64,000 bases of DNA from an uncultured Gammaproteobacteria bacterium. Its GTDB lineage: Bacteria > Pseudomonadota > Gammaproteobacteria > DRLM01. The stretch's first letter is position 1; the number at the start of each line of letters is the position of its first letter. Location of the stretch: contig CAVSNY010000007.1 of the NCBI GenBank assembly GCA_963729605.1, positions 288,001-352,000 on the forward strand. The letters run 5' to 3'. This document shows, one piece after another, positions 35,817-56,486 of the stretch. The notes below the pieces were generated by a model. That model saw only the letters and a program-made list of their open reading frames with translations. It was not told the origin of the DNA and made no database searches. The position numbers were made by a program, and so were the translations under genes.

Positions 35817-36329
35817 ATGATTTTGCCGGCCCTGCTGGTTTTCCAAGGCGTCGTCGGCGGTGTCGATACGCTGGTTAATCACGAAATCATCGAGCGCTTG
35901 CCGCACCGCGTCGAAGCGCGCAACGAGATCGGCCTGCACTGGATACGCGAAACCATTTACGCGTGTTTGTTCGGCGGTTTGGCTTGGTTCGAATTTCATG
36001 GCGCCGCGGCGGTGTTCATCGTCGCGTTGCTGATCGGCGAAATCATCGTCACCGTATGCGACGAATACATAGAAAATCAGATCCGCGTCCTACCGCAGAA
36101 CGAACGGGTGCTGCACGTATTGCTCACTCTCAATTTAGGGCTGGTGATCGCCGTGCTGGTGCCGACCCTGATCGGTTGGGGCAGCTTGCCCACCGGATTG
36201 GCGCCGGTCGAATACGGATTGCTTTCCTGGATACTCAGCGGGTTCGCCTTGCTGGGCGTAGGCTGGGCAATACGCGATTTTATCGCCTGGCGAAAATTGC
36301 GGCGCTTGAGCGGCGCGAGCGCTGCGTGA
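35817..36329 (+). CDS. Hypothetical membrane protein
   Basis: QGVVGGVDTLVNHE...LPQNERVLH, similar to the membrane domain sometimes fused to TIGR01777 epimerases. Confidence 0.75.
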   Translation: MILPALLVFQGVVGGVDTLVNHEIIERLPHRVEARNEIGLHWIRETIYACLFGGLAWFEFHGAAAVFIVALLIGEIIVTVCDEYIENQIRVLPQNERVLHVLLTLNLGLVIAVLVPTLIGWGSLPTGLAPVEYGLLSWILSGFALLGVGWAIRDFIAWRKLRRLSGASAA

Positions 36330-36483
36330 TGAAGTCAATACAAGAGACTGTCCAATTAAACGCAATACCTCTGCGATTCGGCAAGGGCTTTCGCGGTGCT
36401 TTAGGCAAGACTAGAGTGTAATGCGGGAGAGTCTATAGATACGCTTGTTTCCTCACTCAATCACTATTCCCAATTCAGAGCAG

Positions 36484-36555
36484 GTAGGATGCGGTGAGCA
36501 TCGCGATCCGCATCAATCGTGAACGGTGCGGTTCATTTCATTCACCGCATCCTAC
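36484..36555. repeat. GTAG-type REP doublet (REPIN-like)
   Basis: GTAGGATGCGGTGA...TCACCGCATCCTAC inverted pair with internal hairpins. Confidence 0.85.
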
Positions 36556-36562
36556 TTTTTCT

Positions 36563-37540
36563 TTACGACCAATGATGCAGAGCAACAGATTTCGGTTGTG
36601 CAAAGCGAAAGCTTCTTGAAATGCCGTCCCCTTCGAATCGCGACGTAGCGCTACCAAACACAACTTCTTCTGTCGTTGACCAGCCGTAAAGTATGGAACC
36701 ATACAAACCGGAATTGAGGCTATGTTTGGATTGCTCGTCTGTCTTGAGCCTGATTGTTGCTCTCGAAAATGGGTGGCTTTCCCCAAATGTGTAGATTGGT
36801 AGACGCGCCGCGGCTCGAACCGCATTGGCAAAGCATTCCGATTTCGTGCTCGCCTCAACTTCGGAAGAGGCGGCCATTCTCTCTATAAATTGAGCGAGAT
36901 CTCTTGAGCAATTTAGCAGAAGCAGAATTGCTTCCCAAACAAGGGTTGTTATAGAGAAAGTATCGTTCTGGGCATGGAACGTTCTGCTTGGGCAGACCAC
37001 TCCAGACTCGACTCCTTCAATAAAGTAACCGTGTAAGCACCCTTCCTTACCGGCTTTCGAATACTCCAAAGAGAACATTCGTATCCGAGCCTGCTGATGC
37101 TTTAGGTTATTTGCCGCAGCCGACAGAAAGCGCTTGTGCTCTTTAAGACGCTTGTCGAGTTGCCGATAGTATGGGCTCTTGTCCCGCAGTTGCTTCGACT
37201 TAAAGAATCCGGACGCAATTGCATATATGTCATCAACGTGCTCGGCCGCCGCGTATAGCGATAACTCGATATAGTCAATCACCTCCTCCATTAGCGCATT
37301 TTCTTTCTTCAGTAGATCAATTTTAGAAGAGGCCAAAAAGTAGGATTCCAACCTGCTGCACAAGCGAAATAGCTTATTGCATAGGCGCGACGTCGAAACG
37401 TTGTAAATTCCTATAGGCAGGCGAAGGTTGCTTGTTGTATGAAAACAGCGCTCGACATTTACTTTCAACAAGACAAGGTGCGCTTGAAGGCTGGATGGCG
37501 CTTCTTTCGTAAGATCGACTTCGTAGATTTCCTTGCTCAC
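36563..37540 (-). CDS. Cassette-like hypothetical protein (possible HEPN-like)
   Basis: 325-aa low-GC ORF starting 22 bp after a GTTAGGG core; ANNLKH resembles a HEPN Rx4-6H motif. Confidence 0.75.
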   Translation of the reverse strand: MSKEIYEVDLTKEAPSSLQAHLVLLKVNVERCFHTTSNLRLPIGIYNVSTSRLCNKLFRLCSRLESYFLASSKIDLLKKENALMEEVIDYIELSLYAAAEHVDDIYAIASGFFKSKQLRDKSPYYRQLDKRLKEHKRFLSAAANNLKHQQARIRMFSLEYSKAGKEGCLHGYFIEGVESGVVCPSRTFHAQNDTFSITTLVWEAILLLLNCSRDLAQFIERMAASSEVEASTKSECFANAVRAAARLPIYTFGESHPFSRATIRLKTDEQSKHSLNSGLYGSILYGWSTTEEVVFGSATSRFEGDGISRSFRFAQPKSVALHHWS

Positions 37541-37562
37541 GATTGAATCTTTTCCGAGCCCG

Positions 37563-37589
37563 CCCTAACTTAAAGTAGACATCCTAATT
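37563..37589 (-). other. attI-like recombination site, copy 1
   Basis: AATTAGGATGTCTACTTTAAGTTAGGG, same architecture as copies 2-4. Confidence 0.6.
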
Positions 37590-37612
37590 GAAATGGCTAA
37601 TAAGTAAAAATT

Positions 37613-37770
37613 GGGGTAGATTCATTTTATTATTTAGCCAATTACAAACTACTACGCATTTGACATAGCTTTTTGTGGCTTGCCGGGTGCGCACTTTTCA
37701 ATCCGCCTTCTTACTATTTCTTCCACCTTGTCTACGAAAGATGCTATCCAAAGGGATAAATAAATCTGTC
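37613..37770 (-). mobile_element. Non-autonomous RAYT (Y1 transposase) remnant, copy A
   Basis: Ends GACAGATTTATTTATCCC / AAATGAATCTACCCC; encodes RAYT-like C-terminus FVDKVEEIVRRRIEKCAPGKPQK. Confidence 0.7.
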
Positions 37771-37783
37771 TTGGTTTTCGAGG

Positions 37784-38707
37784 TCAAATAAGTTCCTCAT
37801 TGGGCTCCTTTGGTAAGCGGGCTAAATTTGCATTCAATGCATCTGCGTCGATTTGCGGCGCTGCGCCCGGCGCGTATTTCTGAGGCATTGCTGCAAACAT
37901 ATGAGGCGTTACGATACCAAGAAAAGCCTGCAAGTCTAGCCCATTGGATATAGCCGGAATAATCGGCGCGTCGCTATCGGCTGTTGTGCCGGTATAATAT
38001 CTTTGCCCGCCACCACCCTTATGGACCCCTGATTTTTTATGTCGCCAGGCGACGATACAGCGTGGACCAACGGAGTTGTTTGTGAGGCCGAGATGAACCT
38101 TGTAATTAAGAGTGGCAAGATAATCAGTAACTGCGGTTGCTGGGATTTTTAGATTGTCGTGCGCGCGGACTACGTGAAGTAATTCGCGAATCCACTTCTT
38201 GTCTTGCACTAAATAAGCTAAACCAGAGCCCCCGATGCTTAATCGTGGGGTTCGAGGTGATTGATTTGTCGTCGTGCCCACGATGTGACGTATGTAGCGA
38301 AAATTGTAAGTCTTTCGATTGGGCGCAAAAGCAATATCGATAGAGTAGAAACGTGGCTCATCGTTCATGAATGCTGGGATAAAGACGCTATGAGCAGGCT
38401 GGTTGGGTCCCACCATTCGCGATAGGTGCCGGGGAAACTGCTTTTGAAGAGCTGAGGCAAGCACGCCTAACGACTTCTCAAGCGGCAGCTTTCTACCTCG
38501 TAGTACCGCACTCATCCAGTCTGCGGGCTCGGTTCCTTTGGTAGTCGCGCCAAGCCCAGCATAGCCAAGAATGGCGACCCCATCGATTGTCTCTAGGAAC
38601 ATTAGCTTGCAAGCGTCGTCTTTGGGTGGACGACCAGGGTGGGATAGACGTCTATCGGCCAGCAGCCAGATCGTTTCTGGGCCATTAATCGTGAGTATGA
38701 GGGTCAC
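37784..38707 (-). CDS. Cassette-like hypothetical protein (possible Ntn-hydrolase fold)
   Basis: 307-aa low-GC ORF; MTLILT...LLADRRLS and IGGSG resemble the proteasome-beta/Anbu pattern. Confidence 0.75.
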   Translation of the reverse strand: MTLILTINGPETIWLLADRRLSHPGRPPKDDACKLMFLETIDGVAILGYAGLGATTKGTEPADWMSAVLRGRKLPLEKSLGVLASALQKQFPRHLSRMVGPNQPAHSVFIPAFMNDEPRFYSIDIAFAPNRKTYNFRYIRHIVGTTTNQSPRTPRLSIGGSGLAYLVQDKKWIRELLHVVRAHDNLKIPATAVTDYLATLNYKVHLGLTNNSVGPRCIVAWRHKKSGVHKGGGGQRYYTGTTADSDAPIIPAISNGLDLQAFLGIVTPHMFAAMPQKYAPGAAPQIDADALNANLARLPKEPNEELI

Positions 38708-38768
38708 TTCTAATCCCCGTATTTGAGCTGCATGCTTATTTTGAATTAATACTATTGCTATGTGTGCT

Positions 38769-38795
38769 GCCTAACGTGTATTAGACACCCTAATT
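38769..38795 (-). other. attI-like recombination site, copy 2
   Basis: AATTAGGGTGTCTAATACACGTTAGGC with canonical GTTRRRY core. Confidence 0.7.
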
Positions 38796-38844
38796 TTTGC
38801 GTCTTTCTTTGCGCCAGGCTGGTGTGTAATTCTGTATAAAAATT

Positions 38845-38998
38845 GGGACAGATTTATTTTATTCTCTCGTCAATCACAAACTACTACGCATTTGGCGCAG
38901 CCTTTTGCGGACTGCCGGGGGCGCGCTCAATCCGTCTTCCTACTATTTCTTCTACTTGTCTACGAAAAGATCCTCTCCAAAGGGATAAATAAATCTAT
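38845..38998 (-). mobile_element. Non-autonomous RAYT remnant, copy B
   Basis: Ends ATAGATTTATTTATCCC / AAATAAATCTGTCCC; diverged direct repeat of 37613-37770. Confidence 0.7.
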
Positions 38999-39016
38999 GG
39001 TTTTGCAGAACCATGC

Positions 39017-39046
39017 GGCGGAACGCCCTTTGGGCTTCCGCCCTAC
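39017..39046 (-). repeat. GTAG-type REP singlet
   Basis: GTAGGGCGGAAGCCCAAAGGGCGTTCCGCC hairpin. Confidence 0.75.
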
Positions 39047-39048
39047 GA

Positions 39049-39082
39049 GCTTGCGGCACGTCGGCTGCATGGAAGGTTGAGC
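39049..39082 (-). other. Left half of an attC site, truncated by a REP
   Basis: GCTCAAC (RYYYAAC) CTTCCATGCAGCCGACGTGCCGCAAGC, 28 bp after the stop of the DUF1059 gene. Confidence 0.7.
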
Positions 39083-39110
39083 CGCTTGAAAAGATGCGCC
39101 CGCAAGCGGG

Positions 39111-39320
39111 TCATTTGCCGCCTGTCTTAAGAGGCGGGGTGCCCTCTTTGAAAATTCCTCGCAGCTGGTTGCGAAACTCGGGGCTGTCATCGTGCCCGTG
39201 CACGGCCATGGCGTGTTGCACGGCAGCCTCCAGGAGCTCTTCTTCGCTGTCGGCCGATATGGCGATCGTGCAATTCATTTCGCTTGGAAATTCACGGCAG
39301 TCTATGTATTTGCGAGCCAC
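39111..39320 (-). CDS. DUF1059 domain small metal-binding protein (cassette-like)
   Basis: ARKYIDCREFPSEMNCTIAISAD...AVQHAMAVHGH; AAGGAGG RBS, GTG start. Confidence 0.85.
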   Translation of the reverse strand: MARKYIDCREFPSEMNCTIAISADSEEELLEAAVQHAMAVHGHDDSPEFRNQLRGIFKEGTPPLKTGGK

Positions 39321-39398
39321 GATGACCTCCTTCAAACTGTGAATGAGTGCCGTTGGTTTGTGGGTTAGTTGCTGGGTTGCACCCAAGTCCACCGTAGC

Positions 39399-39424
39399 GC
39401 CTAAGTGTATTGGACCACCTAATT
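39399..39424 (-). other. attI-like recombination site, copy 3 (core G lost)
   Basis: AATTAGGTGGTCCAATACACTTAGGC. Confidence 0.6.
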
Positions 39425-39441
39425 GGCGTCTTCTTTACGCC

Positions 39442-39470
39442 AGTGTGGTGCGTAATTCCAGCATCGTCAA
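39442..39470 (-). promoter_or_regulatory. Putative sigma70 (Pc-like) promoter upstream of attI-like copy 3
   Basis: TTGACG-17 bp-CACACT followed by the hairpin TGGCGT...ACGCCA. Confidence 0.55.
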
Positions 39471-39473
39471 TAT

Positions 39474-39516
39474 GGGATAAATAAATCTGTCCCGATTTTG
39501 CCCTCAAGCGTTATGC
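39474..39516 (-). other. attC R'' end (GCATAAC) cut off by a RAYT-type end GGGACAGATTTATTTATCCC
   Basis: GCATAACGCTTGAGGGC begins 15 bp after the upstream stop codon and is followed by the RAYT end at 39474-39493. Confidence 0.6.
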
Positions 39517-39531
39517 CGCTGGAAGGTAAGG

Positions 39532-40308
39532 CTAAAAGGGAATATCTTCATCGATGGTCTTGGGCGTTGGCTTCCTAAGCACAAACAGCGATTCGTTGTT
39601 CTCAACCCAACTCCACCCCGCGTCCGTAAGCCGCGCTGTGCTGTAGACGTGGTCTCGGTGTTCGTCCCATTCTTCTTTGACCTCAATGAGTTTCTTAGAC
39701 GCAAGGCGGCGGAAGGCGAGCGAAAATCCGATTGCTGTCAGCCCGGAGCGTTCTGAGTCTTCCTTGAGCGAGTAAACGGTCGCGGCGGCGCCAGGAAGTG
39801 CTGTGTCACCTGCAAGTATTGCGAGTACCATCAACTCAGTCTGGGTTAGACCTTGAGTCGGAGCTATCTGTTCAGACTCGGTGATCTGGCGCAGGGCCTC
39901 CGTCTTGTTCAGGAGGGCCTTTATACGCTCAGTCAAAGCCGCCTTCAGATTCTCGAAGTCGCTCGATGACTCAGGCTTGTAGTTGATAACCGTTCGGTGC
40001 TGAATGTGGAATGGATACCTCCCGGAGGTTCGTTCGTTGGAACATACCATCACTACCGGACGGCCCGATGCAAAAGCAAACCCCAGTTCGTACCAGACGT
40101 TCGGGTTATCGGTTGTGATGTCGGCAAGGCAGACTGCTGCGTTGCGGATACCTTGCTCAATGGCGTCGATCGGTACCTCTACCCCGGGATCGCGATCGAC
40201 CCGGTAAGCCTCAAGACCGGCCTCTTTAATAGAGGGGACATAGATGTCATCGAAGCGCTTGTCGAACTTCCCCGCGTCAAAGGGCTGGATCACGAAGCAA
40301 TTGGGCAT
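39532..40308 (-). CDS. Cassette-like nucleoside 2-deoxyribosyltransferase/TIR-like domain protein
   Basis: CFVIQPF...AYRVD...LADITTDNPNVWYELGFAFA, with a wHTH-like C-terminus. Confidence 0.8.
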   Translation of the reverse strand: MPNCFVIQPFDAGKFDKRFDDIYVPSIKEAGLEAYRVDRDPGVEVPIDAIEQGIRNAAVCLADITTDNPNVWYELGFAFASGRPVVMVCSNERTSGRYPFHIQHRTVINYKPESSSDFENLKAALTERIKALLNKTEALRQITESEQIAPTQGLTQTELMVLAILAGDTALPGAAATVYSLKEDSERSGLTAIGFSLAFRRLASKKLIEVKEEWDEHRDHVYSTARLTDAGWSWVENNESLFVLRKPTPKTIDEDIPF

Positions 40309-40323
40309 ACGAGTCTCACAAAG

Positions 40324-40350
40324 GTATAACGTGTATTAAACACCCTAATT
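40324..40350 (-). other. attI-like recombination site, copy 4
   Basis: AATTAGGGTGTTTAATACACGTTATAC, 15 bp before the ATG. Confidence 0.65.
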
Positions 40351-40367
40351 GGCGTCTTCTTTACGCC

Positions 40368-40396
40368 AGTGTGGTGTGTAATTCCAGCATCGTCAA
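40368..40396 (-). promoter_or_regulatory. Putative sigma70 (Pc-like) promoter upstream of attI-like copy 4
   Basis: TTGACG-17 bp-CACACT; 40347-40403 equals 39421-39477 with one mismatch. Confidence 0.55.
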
Positions 40397-40523
40397 TATG
40401 GGACAAGGGTCGATAAGGAATTGCTAGTTTTATACGGCCCAATGAAAAAGTGTCACCACCTCGTTGCGCGGACCGTCCAAGTATCTTGATACCTCATACG
40501 CTTGCGGCGGGATGATTTATCAA

Positions 40524-40913
40524 TCATCCACCGCCAAAAATCACCCCGCTCAAATCCACGTCGCGGAGGTCGGCCATTTTGATGCCGGCTTCGTCGATGT
40601 GCGCGCCGGTGAGGTTGGCGCCGGCGAGTTTGGCGCCCAGCCATTTCGCGCCGCGTAAACGCGCGCCGCTCAAGTCGGCGCCGCTGAAGTTGGCGGCGTT
40701 CAAGTCGGCGCGTTCGAGATTGGCGCCTCGCAGGTTGGCCAGCCGCGCATCGGCGTCGCGCAGATTGGCGCCGCTGAGGTTGACGCCGCTGAGGTCGAGC
40801 TCGACCAGATTGGCGTCGAGGAATTCGACGCCGGACAGGTCGGCGCCATGCAGGCTGGTGCCGGCGTAACTCAGGAGCAGGATGAAGCCGCGGCGGTCGT
40901 AGATTTCGATCAT
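40524..40913 (-). CDS. Pentapeptide repeat protein
   Basis: Repeated A(D/N)LxG units. Confidence 0.88.
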   Translation of the reverse strand: MIEIYDRRGFILLLSYAGTSLHGADLSGVEFLDANLVELDLSGVNLSGANLRDADARLANLRGANLERADLNAANFSGADLSGARLRGAKWLGAKLAGANLTGAHIDEAGIKMADLRDVDLSGVIFGGG

Positions 40914-55571: not shown

Positions 55572-56486
55572 TTACCGCTTTTTCTTCGCCCGCGGATGGG
55601 CATGATCGTAGACCTTGGCCAGGTGTTGAAAATCCAGGTGGGTGTAAATCTGCGTGGTGGCGATGTCGGCGTGGCCCAGCAATTCCTGCACGGCGCGCAG
55701 ATCGCCGCTGGATTCCAGCAGGTGACTGGCGCAGGAGTGACGCAATAAATGCGGATGCAGCGGCGTGTCCAGGCCTTGTTTCATTCCCCGGAAACGCAGG
55801 CGTTGCTGCACGGCGCGCGCGGTGATCCGGCGGCCGCGCCGGCTGATGAATAGCGCGTTTTCATCAGGGGCGGCGAGACTGTTTCGTGTGTGCAACCAGG
55901 CGTCGAGCGCGACGCGGGCGAGACGGCCGACCGGCACGATGCGGGTCTTGTCGCCTTTGCCGATGACGCGCACGGTGCCGTCATTGCGGTCGAGGTCGGT
56001 CAGATCGAGCCGCACGAGTTCGGCGAGGCGCAATCCCGAGGAATACAGCAGCTCCATCATGGCGTGATCGCGTTGCGCCAGGGCGGGTGATGATTCATCG
56101 GCGCCGGAACGGTCCATGAGGCGGCTGACTTGATCGGCGTCGAGCGCCTTGGGTAAGCGGCGCGGCGCCTTGGGCGCGCGCAGGCCGGCCGCGGGGTTGG
56201 CGGTCACCCGCTTTTCGCGCAGTAAATACCGGTAAAACGACCGCAGCGCGGAGAGCCGCCGTTGCAGGCTGCGGCCGCCGAGGCCGGCGCGGTGCTGGGC
56301 GGCGACGAAGGCGCGCAGGTGATGCGCGTCGACCCGCGCCCACGTTGCGACGCGTTGCTGGTCGAGGAAGCCGTGGACGGCGAGCAGATCGCGCCGGTAA
56401 TTGCCGAGGGTGTGCGGCGAGAGGCGGCGTTCGATCTCCAGATGATGGAGAAACTCGCCGATGCGGCGCGTCTCCGCGTCGTCCAT
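55572..56486 (-). CDS. xerC: Tyrosine recombinase XerC
   Basis: ELLYSSGLRLAE, HLLRHSCASH, LGHADIATTQIYTHLDFQHLA; dapF-yigA-xerC synteny. Confidence 0.95.
   Translation of the reverse strand: MDDAETRRIGEFLHHLEIERRLSPHTLGNYRRDLLAVHGFLDQQRVATWARVDAHHLRAFVAAQHRAGLGGRSLQRRLSALRSFYRYLLREKRVTANPAAGLRAPKAPRRLPKALDADQVSRLMDRSGADESSPALAQRDHAMMELLYSSGLRLAELVRLDLTDLDRNDGTVRVIGKGDKTRIVPVGRLARVALDAWLHTRNSLAAPDENALFISRRGRRITARAVQQRLRFRGMKQGLDTPLHPHLLRHSCASHLLESSGDLRAVQELLGHADIATTQIYTHLDFQHLAKVYDHAHPRAKKKR

Follow-up and report, generated by a model that had tools for sequence, protein, structure and literature searches.

Gene cassettes that end in a piece of attI have been described in mobile integrons of classes 1 and 2 as "unusual ΔattI-type gene cassettes" (Partridge et al. 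2009, as cited in PMC12901181; Gonzales Machuca et al., Sci Rep 2026, PMC12901181). According to the latter paper, the integrase IntI1 both excises and inserts cassettes ending in a whole or partial attI, the ΔattI pieces comprise 8-238 nt before the crossover, with one case of a whole attI1 on both sides, and an attI1-aadB-attI1 unit is excised at ~100%, which the authors give as the reason that such units are rare where IntI is active (PMC12901181). Other described states are clusters of attC sites lacking an integrase (CALIN) and an intI gene without attC (In0), as defined by IntegronFinder (Cury et al. 2016, PMC4889954), and cassettes can also be inserted into genomes outside att sites, at places called attG (bioRxiv 10.1101/2022.09.11.507474; PMC12901181). 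Here we describe a gene array in a stretch of 64,000 nucleotides of an uncultured gammaproteobacterial genome (assembly GCA_963729605.1, here G000; contig CAVSNY010000007.1, here C7, positions 288001-352000; hereafter the window, whose coordinates are used below unless a contig is given). Each of its four genes follows a copy of a 27-bp site that, judged by its sequence and setting, is a genuine integron attI. We think that the array is probably a decayed chromosomal integron, in which attI-ended cassettes would have been gained and lost at a resident attI by attI-attI exchange, with the integrase acting in trans and with trimming by Y1 transposase elements.

The array occupies 36477-40480 and consists of four genes, A-D, and four sites, all on the minus strand, with one site copy ahead of each gene. 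A degenerate 27-mer, allowed <=3 mismatches, matches three of the sites (37563-37589, 38769-38795, and 40324-40350); it matched nowhere in 100 dinucleotide-preserving shuffles of the window. The fourth (39399-39424) is one base short, missing the G of the sequence that we write G/TT, so that an ungapped pattern fails to detect it, and a repeat comparison puts it at 75% (repeat family D5). In the whole genome there are 10 matches to the site (<=2 mismatches) and none to a reversed control. The GC content is 0.40-0.58 over 36600-40599, compared with 0.61-0.71 in most flanking bins and 0.59-0.62 per contig of the genome. An earlier note on this DNA, made from the sequence alone, had reported four co-oriented, unrelated genes of mostly lower GC, each behind a copy of the site, and these results agree with it.

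We call the site together with its upstream region a platform, and distinguish two variants, v1 and v2, in which the simple site (L-R) ends in G/TTRRRY. Module 4 (40324-40428, minus strand) is a full v2 platform by platform alignments, with the site, an AATTAGG box, a hairpin, TTGACG-17-CACACT, and the spacer to the intI start. Next to it, on the plus strand and divergent from the array, is a stub of ~50 nt of the intI 5' end (40429-40480), as aligned with the intact intI on contig C50 of G001, a genome of the same genus, and with stubs at C7:1213k of G000 and on contig C52 of G001. Module 4 adjoins a pentapeptide-repeat gene, which in G001 sits 3.7 kb from the intact intI, and we regard this module as the resident attI of the locus. 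Module 3 (39399-39480, minus strand; repeat and platform alignments) is a truncated v2 attI that retains 82 nt, including TTGACG-17-CACACT, and contains the site without the G. Its likeness to module 4, 76 nt at 92%, takes in this same stretch, which the earlier note had seen to be common to two copies. Module 2 (38769-38832, minus strand; platform alignments) is also a truncated v2 attI, with 64 nt comprising the site, the hairpin, and a stretch that aligns with the -10-like hexamer (CAGCCT); its -35 is replaced by the end of a transposase remnant. Module 1 (37563-37601, minus strand) is a truncated v1 attI in which the 27-bp site is joined to 12 nt holding the complement of the intI start codon. 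Compared with the full v1 platforms at C7:406105, 412057, and 1211839, it has lost ~150 bp between two AATTAGG boxes and keeps 39 nt. Genes D, C, and B are in this way followed by 82, 64, and 39 nt of attI platform in the place of an attC. Behind gene D there is also what is probably the 5' half of an attC (GCATAAC and ~17 nt; 39493-39516, minus strand), recognized by eye against the attCs of the genome and cut by a terminal repeat. Two gene ends had been proposed as RYYYAAC attC starts, and one of them, this GCATAAC, is off the consensus at one position.

The likeness to the ΔattI-type cassettes of PMC12901181 is that an array gene is followed by a piece of attI and not by an attC, as is the case for D, C, and B, and that attI pieces of two integron classes or types occur in one array. 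The present array differs in being chromosomal, of the non-resistance kind, and without an integrase, and also in its three internal boundaries, each of which is a piece of attI, with no attC among them. Here these pieces carry promoter-like sequence and, elsewhere in the genome, intI stubs; remnants of Y1 transposase elements abut them, and platforms also stand alone at many chromosomal places. Judged by its chromosomal setting and its synteny with congeners, the array is not part of a mobile class 1, 2, or 3 integron. In the complex class 1 integron In104 of Salmonella genomic island 1, there are reportedly two attI sites, each with a single cassette and the second beside a truncated intI1; these attI1 sites are said to be separated by the conserved 3'-segment and resistance genes, in the presence of a working intI1. 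In contrast, four attI copies stand head to tail here with only one gene and repeat debris between them. Like a CALIN, the array is an apparently integron-derived set of genes without an integrase gene, but a CALIN is defined by its attCs, and no credible attC is found in the window. As at attG, cassettes would have docked away from an integron by means of an integrase in trans, but attG sites are described as short, degenerate, and unrelated to attI, whereas the docks here are homologous copies of an attI platform of 60-160 bp.

In a literature search (orphan, multiple, or solo attI; integrons with REP-associated tyrosine transposases, RAYTs, where REP stands for repetitive extragenic palindrome), this layout was found only in PMC12901181. 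We did not find in print an array made of attI pieces only, two attI types in a chromosomal array, 16 integrase-less platforms in a genome, or a tie to Y1 transposons. A layout separated by attI copies has so far been reported only in resistance integrons, and calling it a new, inverted architecture, as had been done for this locus, was too strong, given that PMC12901181 describes attI-ended cassettes in integrons of classes 1 and 2.

The identification of the site as an attI is based on where it lies and where its likeness ends. Contig C50 of G001 carries an intact intI of 339 aa (484.6 bits to TIGR02249, against a cut-off of 265 bits), and the 130 bp upstream of this gene align with the v2 platform of modules 2-4, in the order TTGACG, 17 nt, CATACT, a short hairpin, an (A/T)ATTAGGGTGT box, and GTT. 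The same platform adjoins an intact intI on a contig (L081) of another gammaproteobacterial metagenome-assembled genome, with 76.7% identity over 318 aa to the integrase of G001. In G000 a v1 site lies ~130 bp upstream of a broken, divergent intI (C7:412215-412467), which is the attI position; this gene adjoins a block with lysA, 84 kb from the window array. The earlier note had proposed looking for the site beside a bona fide intI, and the site or its homologue is found in these three places, next to two intact genes and a broken one, with only a stub kept in the window itself. As that note had also seen, the repeat is conserved only before G/TT. Among the v1 copies (n=9), ungapped pairwise identity is 0.81 in the 40 nt before G/TT and 0.24 in the 40 nt after TTRRRY; among the v2 copies (n=8), the same measure gives 0.62 and 0.27; the values after the crossover are at chance level in both variants. 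The R box has the form GTTRRRY, with the likeness ending at the presumed crossover, except in site 3, which is without the G. These features together identify the 27-bp site, by comparison of sequences, as a genuine integron attI, with the crossover most plausibly at G/TT.

Five different integron lineages of the family (L022, L023, L028, L025, and the v1/v2 platforms) have a hairpin directly upstream of the attI simple site, and its sequence differs strongly in each. The hairpin of the G007 locus, CTGTGTTTAAACACAG, resembles the consensus of a LexA box.

It had also been suggested that the site could serve a different, Xer-like tyrosine recombinase. A gene of the Xer type is indeed present in the window (~55611-56423), but sites homologous to this one occupy the attI position next to intact IntI genes in two genomes and next to a remnant of IntI in G000, and G000 has just two Xer-type genes, the number expected for XerC and XerD. 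We consider this reading highly improbable, and it is unnecessary. The gene in the window (317 aa, 55611-56423, C7:343611-344423, minus strand) is probably XerC or XerD, the other one being at C6:33.6k; the scores to TIGR02249 are 66.9 and 48.7 bits, well short of its cut-off.

We found no intact intI in G000, which is 94.5% complete: none of the six TIGR02249 matches reaches 265 bits, and tblastn gives N-terminal remnants only. The intI fragments at C7:412215-412467 cover TIGR02249 positions 1-45 (with a TAA) and 94-135. An intI that scores above the cut-off is present in six of the 11 other genomes of the family. At C7:382388-382605 there is another stub of intI, KPKLLDQVREKIRVKHYS, with a diverged site, GATTGGGTGTCTACTTTGAGTTCGGC, ~130 bp away on the other strand, which would be a third type of platform. 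For attC, we used a home-made rule, RYYYAAC ... GTTRRRY with pairing arms, in a strict and a relaxed form. The strict rule gave no hit in the window and two in control arrays. The relaxed rule gave seven hits in the window, all inside genes, platforms, or the left flank, and is noisy (609 hits in 300 kb of background). Other arrays in G000 have clear attCs of 60-90 nt (C7:59235-59149, 1212270-1212208, 1211060-1211001, and C5:230404-230340). We conclude from the profile, tblastn, and attC-rule searches that the array is without an integrase and without a credible attC, as had been stated before. It falls outside both the CALIN (>=2 attC and no intI nearby) and the complete integron (a functional IntI and cassettes bounded by attC).

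In nine of ten aligned platforms TTGAC is invariant, having been lost in module 2, and most have a CAYAYT-type hexamer 17 nt downstream. This stretch matches only 8 of 12 consensus positions, and we take it as a putative promoter. Of the four modules, only 3 and 4 have TTGACG. The earlier description of each module as a promoter with an attI fits at most these two; module 2 is without its -35 and module 1 without the whole promoter region. The further statement that each gene is individually expressed went too far, as TTGACG is kept in two modules only and a promoter scan makes no call in the array.

Counted by BLAST with platform sequences, G000 has 16 platform copies, of which 9 are v1 (including the stub with the diverged site at C7:382.4k) and 7 are v2 (including two diverged, atpC-type copies). 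Platforms are in tandem at four loci: the window, C7:1211.8k/1213.0k, C5:230k/232.5k, and C7:406k/412k. Some v1 copies are 94-95% alike. The assemblies of the congeners are drafts that break at repeats, so the copy numbers counted in them are minima. Three platforms without an integrase have orthologues in congeners, and in these the cargo differs from the crossover onward. The first is downstream of atpC and its terminator (between atpC and glmU) in G000, G001, and G002, with two lipoprotein cassettes as its cargo in G000, each followed by an attC-like site, the second of which is a clear attC of 87 nt. The second is C2:530, orthologous to a platform on contig C68 of G002, and the third is C7:1213k, orthologous to one on contig C52 of G001. 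Three orthologous platforms without an integrase but with differing cargo fit the proposal that such sites are filled by an IntI made elsewhere. The DNA of genes A-D has no match in the 11 other genomes of the family, where only the repeats match.

At C7:1210-1213k, a complete attC of 63 nt ending in G/TTGAGG is followed by 21 nt, a transposase remnant, an intI stub of 25 codons, and a v1 platform, whose own G/TT opens the next cassette, which ends in an attC of 60 nt. Recombination of an attI-bearing circle with one of the array's attCs would be expected to give this unit. A cassette into which a transposon inserted is another reading of it.

Natural variation at the window was seen in metagenomes. 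Parts of the stretch are present in 15 public DNA metagenome runs from 8 studies. All four runs examined, from 3 studies, have a contig in which 38795 is joined to 40357 by way of 8 other letters, and the intervening 1561 nt, with genes C and D and platform 3, are missing; the flanks at this joint are 255, 26, 200, and 100 nt. The joining contig of run X1, of 5535 nt, shows 5 differences over 1082 nt at one side and 17 over 644 nt at the other, and another contig of this run is unbroken from the left flank via gene A and the truncated v1 site into the first transposase remnant. The four runs give no cover of 39106-40323, which we counted only because contigs join across it. Other joints (37742 to 38838, back steps of ~1.2 kb, and others) were set aside, as they are inside the multi-copy transposase remnant. 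From the joining contigs it follows that relatives have a full platform of the module-4 type directly before gene B, without gene D, platform 3, and gene C. The C-D segment is a natural indel with both of its ends in attI copies.

These comparisons also bear on whether an integrase had any role. Several integrons could simply have decayed, with homologous recombination and segmental duplication among platforms, REPs, and remnants shuffling the pieces into tandem. The region is dense in repeats, and the indel breakpoint lies inside sequence common to the platforms. There has also been rearrangement on a larger scale: in G001 the pentapeptide gene is separated from intI by lysA, a methyltransferase gene, and corA (G001:C50:1419-8633), and in G000 the same three genes (C7:412573-418304) have moved 84 kb from the pentapeptide gene (compared from 40484 onward) and lie beside the broken v1 intI. 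However, homologous exchange predicts no fixed end, and the likeness ends at the same base, G/TT, in the three orthologous comparisons and in 17 copies; moreover, attC-ended cassettes begin exactly at G/TT both between atpC and glmU and at C7:1210-1213k. We therefore consider shuffling without an integrase quite improbable as the full account. As an observation in its own right, the shift of the lysA block is a large rearrangement with integron platforms at both ends, and because what surrounds this block in G001 is split between two loci in G000, the two arrays look like parts of one rearranged integron region.

Between the genes and the platforms are remnants of Y1 elements and REPs. Behind gene B is an internally deleted Y1 (RAYT-type) element whose terminal inverted repeats are of the GGGACAGATTTATTT type and which retains ~40 codons from the end of a transposase gene (37606-37778, minus strand; repeats D2, D6, and D10 and comparison with a parent element). 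A second internally deleted Y1 transposase element lies behind gene C (38838-39005, minus strand; repeat and remnant comparison). Behind gene D, a lone terminal repeat of a Y1 element is joined to the left edge of platform 3 (39474-39500, minus strand; inverted repeat I1). The two elements of ~170 bp and this 20-nt repeat are one family with GGGACAGATTTATTT-type inverted ends. A REP unit of the GTAGGGCGGAAGCCC type is found at 39011-39048, and the array ends distally in an inverted REP pair of the GTAGGATGCGGTGA type (36477-36562; inverted repeat I2, with 21-nt arms that are 86% complementary and 44 nt apart), immediately behind the gene A stop. From the stops of D, C, B, and A, the gaps to the next repeat element are 43, 114, 16, and 0 nt. 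The downstream junctions are as earlier described, with one 20-nt terminal repeat, two transposase remnants of ~170 bp, and two kinds of GTAG REP.

The exact 20-nt end was found in 15 contigs of other species, and it was through this end alone that the parent element was traced. On one of these (L074) it heads a gene of 235 aa with a Y1_Tnp domain (PF01797, E 9.2e-14), and the C-terminus of this protein is identical to the window remnant at 15 of 29 positions (E 1e-9); the same contig also holds an internally deleted copy. The end and the C-terminus tie the window remnants to a Y1_Tnp gene, and the RAYT label that they had been given stands. By their sequence, the junction elements are internally deleted derivatives of a Y1/RAYT-type element. 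The window copies do not themselves encode the Y1_Tnp domain, having the ~last 40 codons only. A query with the 41-aa remnant matched six copies in G000, none in plasmids, and none among longer proteins, the last being weak evidence. G000 has a single Y1_Tnp gene, of a different type, where contig C7 begins; a full-length gene for the remnant's type of transposase was found neither in G000 nor in the 11 other genomes of the order.

The earlier note had put these elements at the center of its model, in which promoter-attI pads were multiplied by the Y1/HUH transposase, filled by an IntI in trans, and locked by loss of the attC. One conceivable route for the copying is read-through past the right end of the element, which would take the neighboring platform with it. 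In 5 of 10 remnant copies (modules 1, 2, and 3 of the window, C7:1212063, and C5:232671), <=40 nt separate the right end from a platform's left edge, there is a vestige of this adjacency at C5:230170, the v1 copies that are 94-95% alike suggest recent copying, and the parent element does encode a Y1_Tnp protein. In addition, most of the other remnant copies seem to be inside cassette arrays, by reading the loci and uncounted. Still, an adjacency in half of the copies is an association, and no two copies join remnant and platform in the same way (stubs of 25, 13, 13, 3, and 0 codons), which resembles a set of nested deletions rather than copies of one unit. The platforms between atpC and glmU and at C2:530, C4:27197, C7:1213k, and C7:1031k have no adjacent remnant, and the unit at C7:1210-1213k sits as insertion by an integrase would place it. 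A full-length gene of the required type was not found in any of the 12 genomes of the order that were searched, and RAYT-type enzymes are not known to transduce the DNA that flanks them. That the transposase multiplied the pads is thus not borne out, and we judge this model unlikely.

We return to the decayed integron, which we consider the probable history. The window would be the attI-proximal end of a chromosomal integron whose integrase gene has been cut to ~50 nt, and the three genes behind module 4 would be attI-type cassettes that end in truncated attI, two of them v2 and one v1. Units of this kind may form and move by exchange between the many attI copies of the lineage, either through an IntI made elsewhere in the cell or by short-homology recombination; of these, we favor IntI as the likely catalyst, provided in trans for as long as the lineage still possessed one. 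Insertions of a Y1 (RAYT-type) element, together with adjacent deletions, would have shortened the platforms and broken up at least one attC. As the genome has no working IntI, the tandem attI modules would now be frozen, and the ~100% excision of attI-gene-attI units by IntI1 would explain why four modules have piled up in a genome without a working intI.

A number of points count against this history. Recombination itself was not observed directly, and the breakpoint of the indel is inside ~60 nt common to both platforms, where recombination of the RecA type gives the same product. Sites 1-3 may be dead, since site 3 is without its G, and of attI only ~35 nt remain in module 1 and ~60 nt in module 2. 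In five cases it is a transposase remnant that determines a platform's left edge, something for which a purely integrase-driven model has no need. An intI could be in the part of the genome that is missing from the 94.5% complete assembly. A consensus scan of 36300-40600 called no sigma-70 promoter. Finally, genes A-D are read as cassettes from their context, and the sole usable homologue of gene B has no attC in the canonical order.

Gene A (325 aa; 36563-37540, minus strand) and gene B (307 aa; 37784-38707, minus strand) have no family match in Pfam, NCBIfam, and PADLOC searches, and homologues of the gene B protein were found in 2 of 399 other genomes of the class. Gene C (39111-39392, minus strand) encodes a DUF1059 protein (PF06348, E 8.6e-11). 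Its longest frame is 93 aa, and the start is most likely the GTG at 39320, 6 nt behind GGAGG, giving 69 aa. Gene D (258 aa; 39532-40308, minus strand) has an N-terminal part weakly like a Toll/interleukin-1 receptor (TIR) domain or a nucleoside 2-deoxyribosyltransferase, with 26.2 bits to PF05014, which is below the cut-off of 28.8 bits, and E 3.6e-8 to the TIR effector model PDLC00733. The homologue of gene B on contig C28 of genome G025 is flanked on both sides by elements of ~135 nt (L078 230-420 and 1510-1660) with inverted arms of 38 nt. Their boxes, GTTAGCGG and CCGCTAAC, follow each other as GTTAGCG ... CGCTAAC, an order unlike that of an attC, with no intI detected in that genome; this homologue could be another repeat-bounded gene unit. 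A match in G050, an unpublished genome, was set aside.

The left flank of the array has no synteny in G001, and in G002 other genes come after it. At 36360-36424 the window is 71% like the v2 hairpin region, with a AATTGGACAGTCT motif following, and this may be what is left of a fifth attI, much decayed, at the array's distal end. At C7:407310-407345 (L015 7310-7345), nothing but TTTTTAACTTTACGTTAGGC, which follows a decayed terminal repeat, stands ahead of a cassette judged NYN/LabA-like by eye; TTTTTAACTTTACGTTAGGC may be a very short remnant of an attI or attC.

Surveys of integrons know three states (complete, In0, and CALIN) and detect arrays via attC. They have no general model of attI, so integrase-less attI docks and arrays held by attI are invisible to them. 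To our knowledge, IntegronFinder models no attI beyond those of the known mobile classes, and a layout of this kind would go unreported. This lineage has both lone docks and attI-held arrays in the chromosome of an environmental bacterium. It allows a recent laboratory result, the near-immediate excision of attI-gene-attI units under an active IntI, to be tested in nature, and it provides defined substrates, namely two attI types, a truncated series, and a cognate IntI in a congener, with which to ask how much attI is required and if a single integrase can serve many docks. The comparative and population evidence indicates that the docks still exchange cargo. It is possible, and we put this forward only tentatively, that the genus runs a distributed integron, in which one or two integrase genes would serve at least 12 heritable attI docks scattered along the chromosome with their own promoters, units of a gene and an attI would hop between them as mobile cassettes, Y1 insertions would truncate the attI, and the tandem modules, otherwise short-lived, would accumulate, leaving every captured gene with a dock of its own, and become fixed where the integrase is lost.

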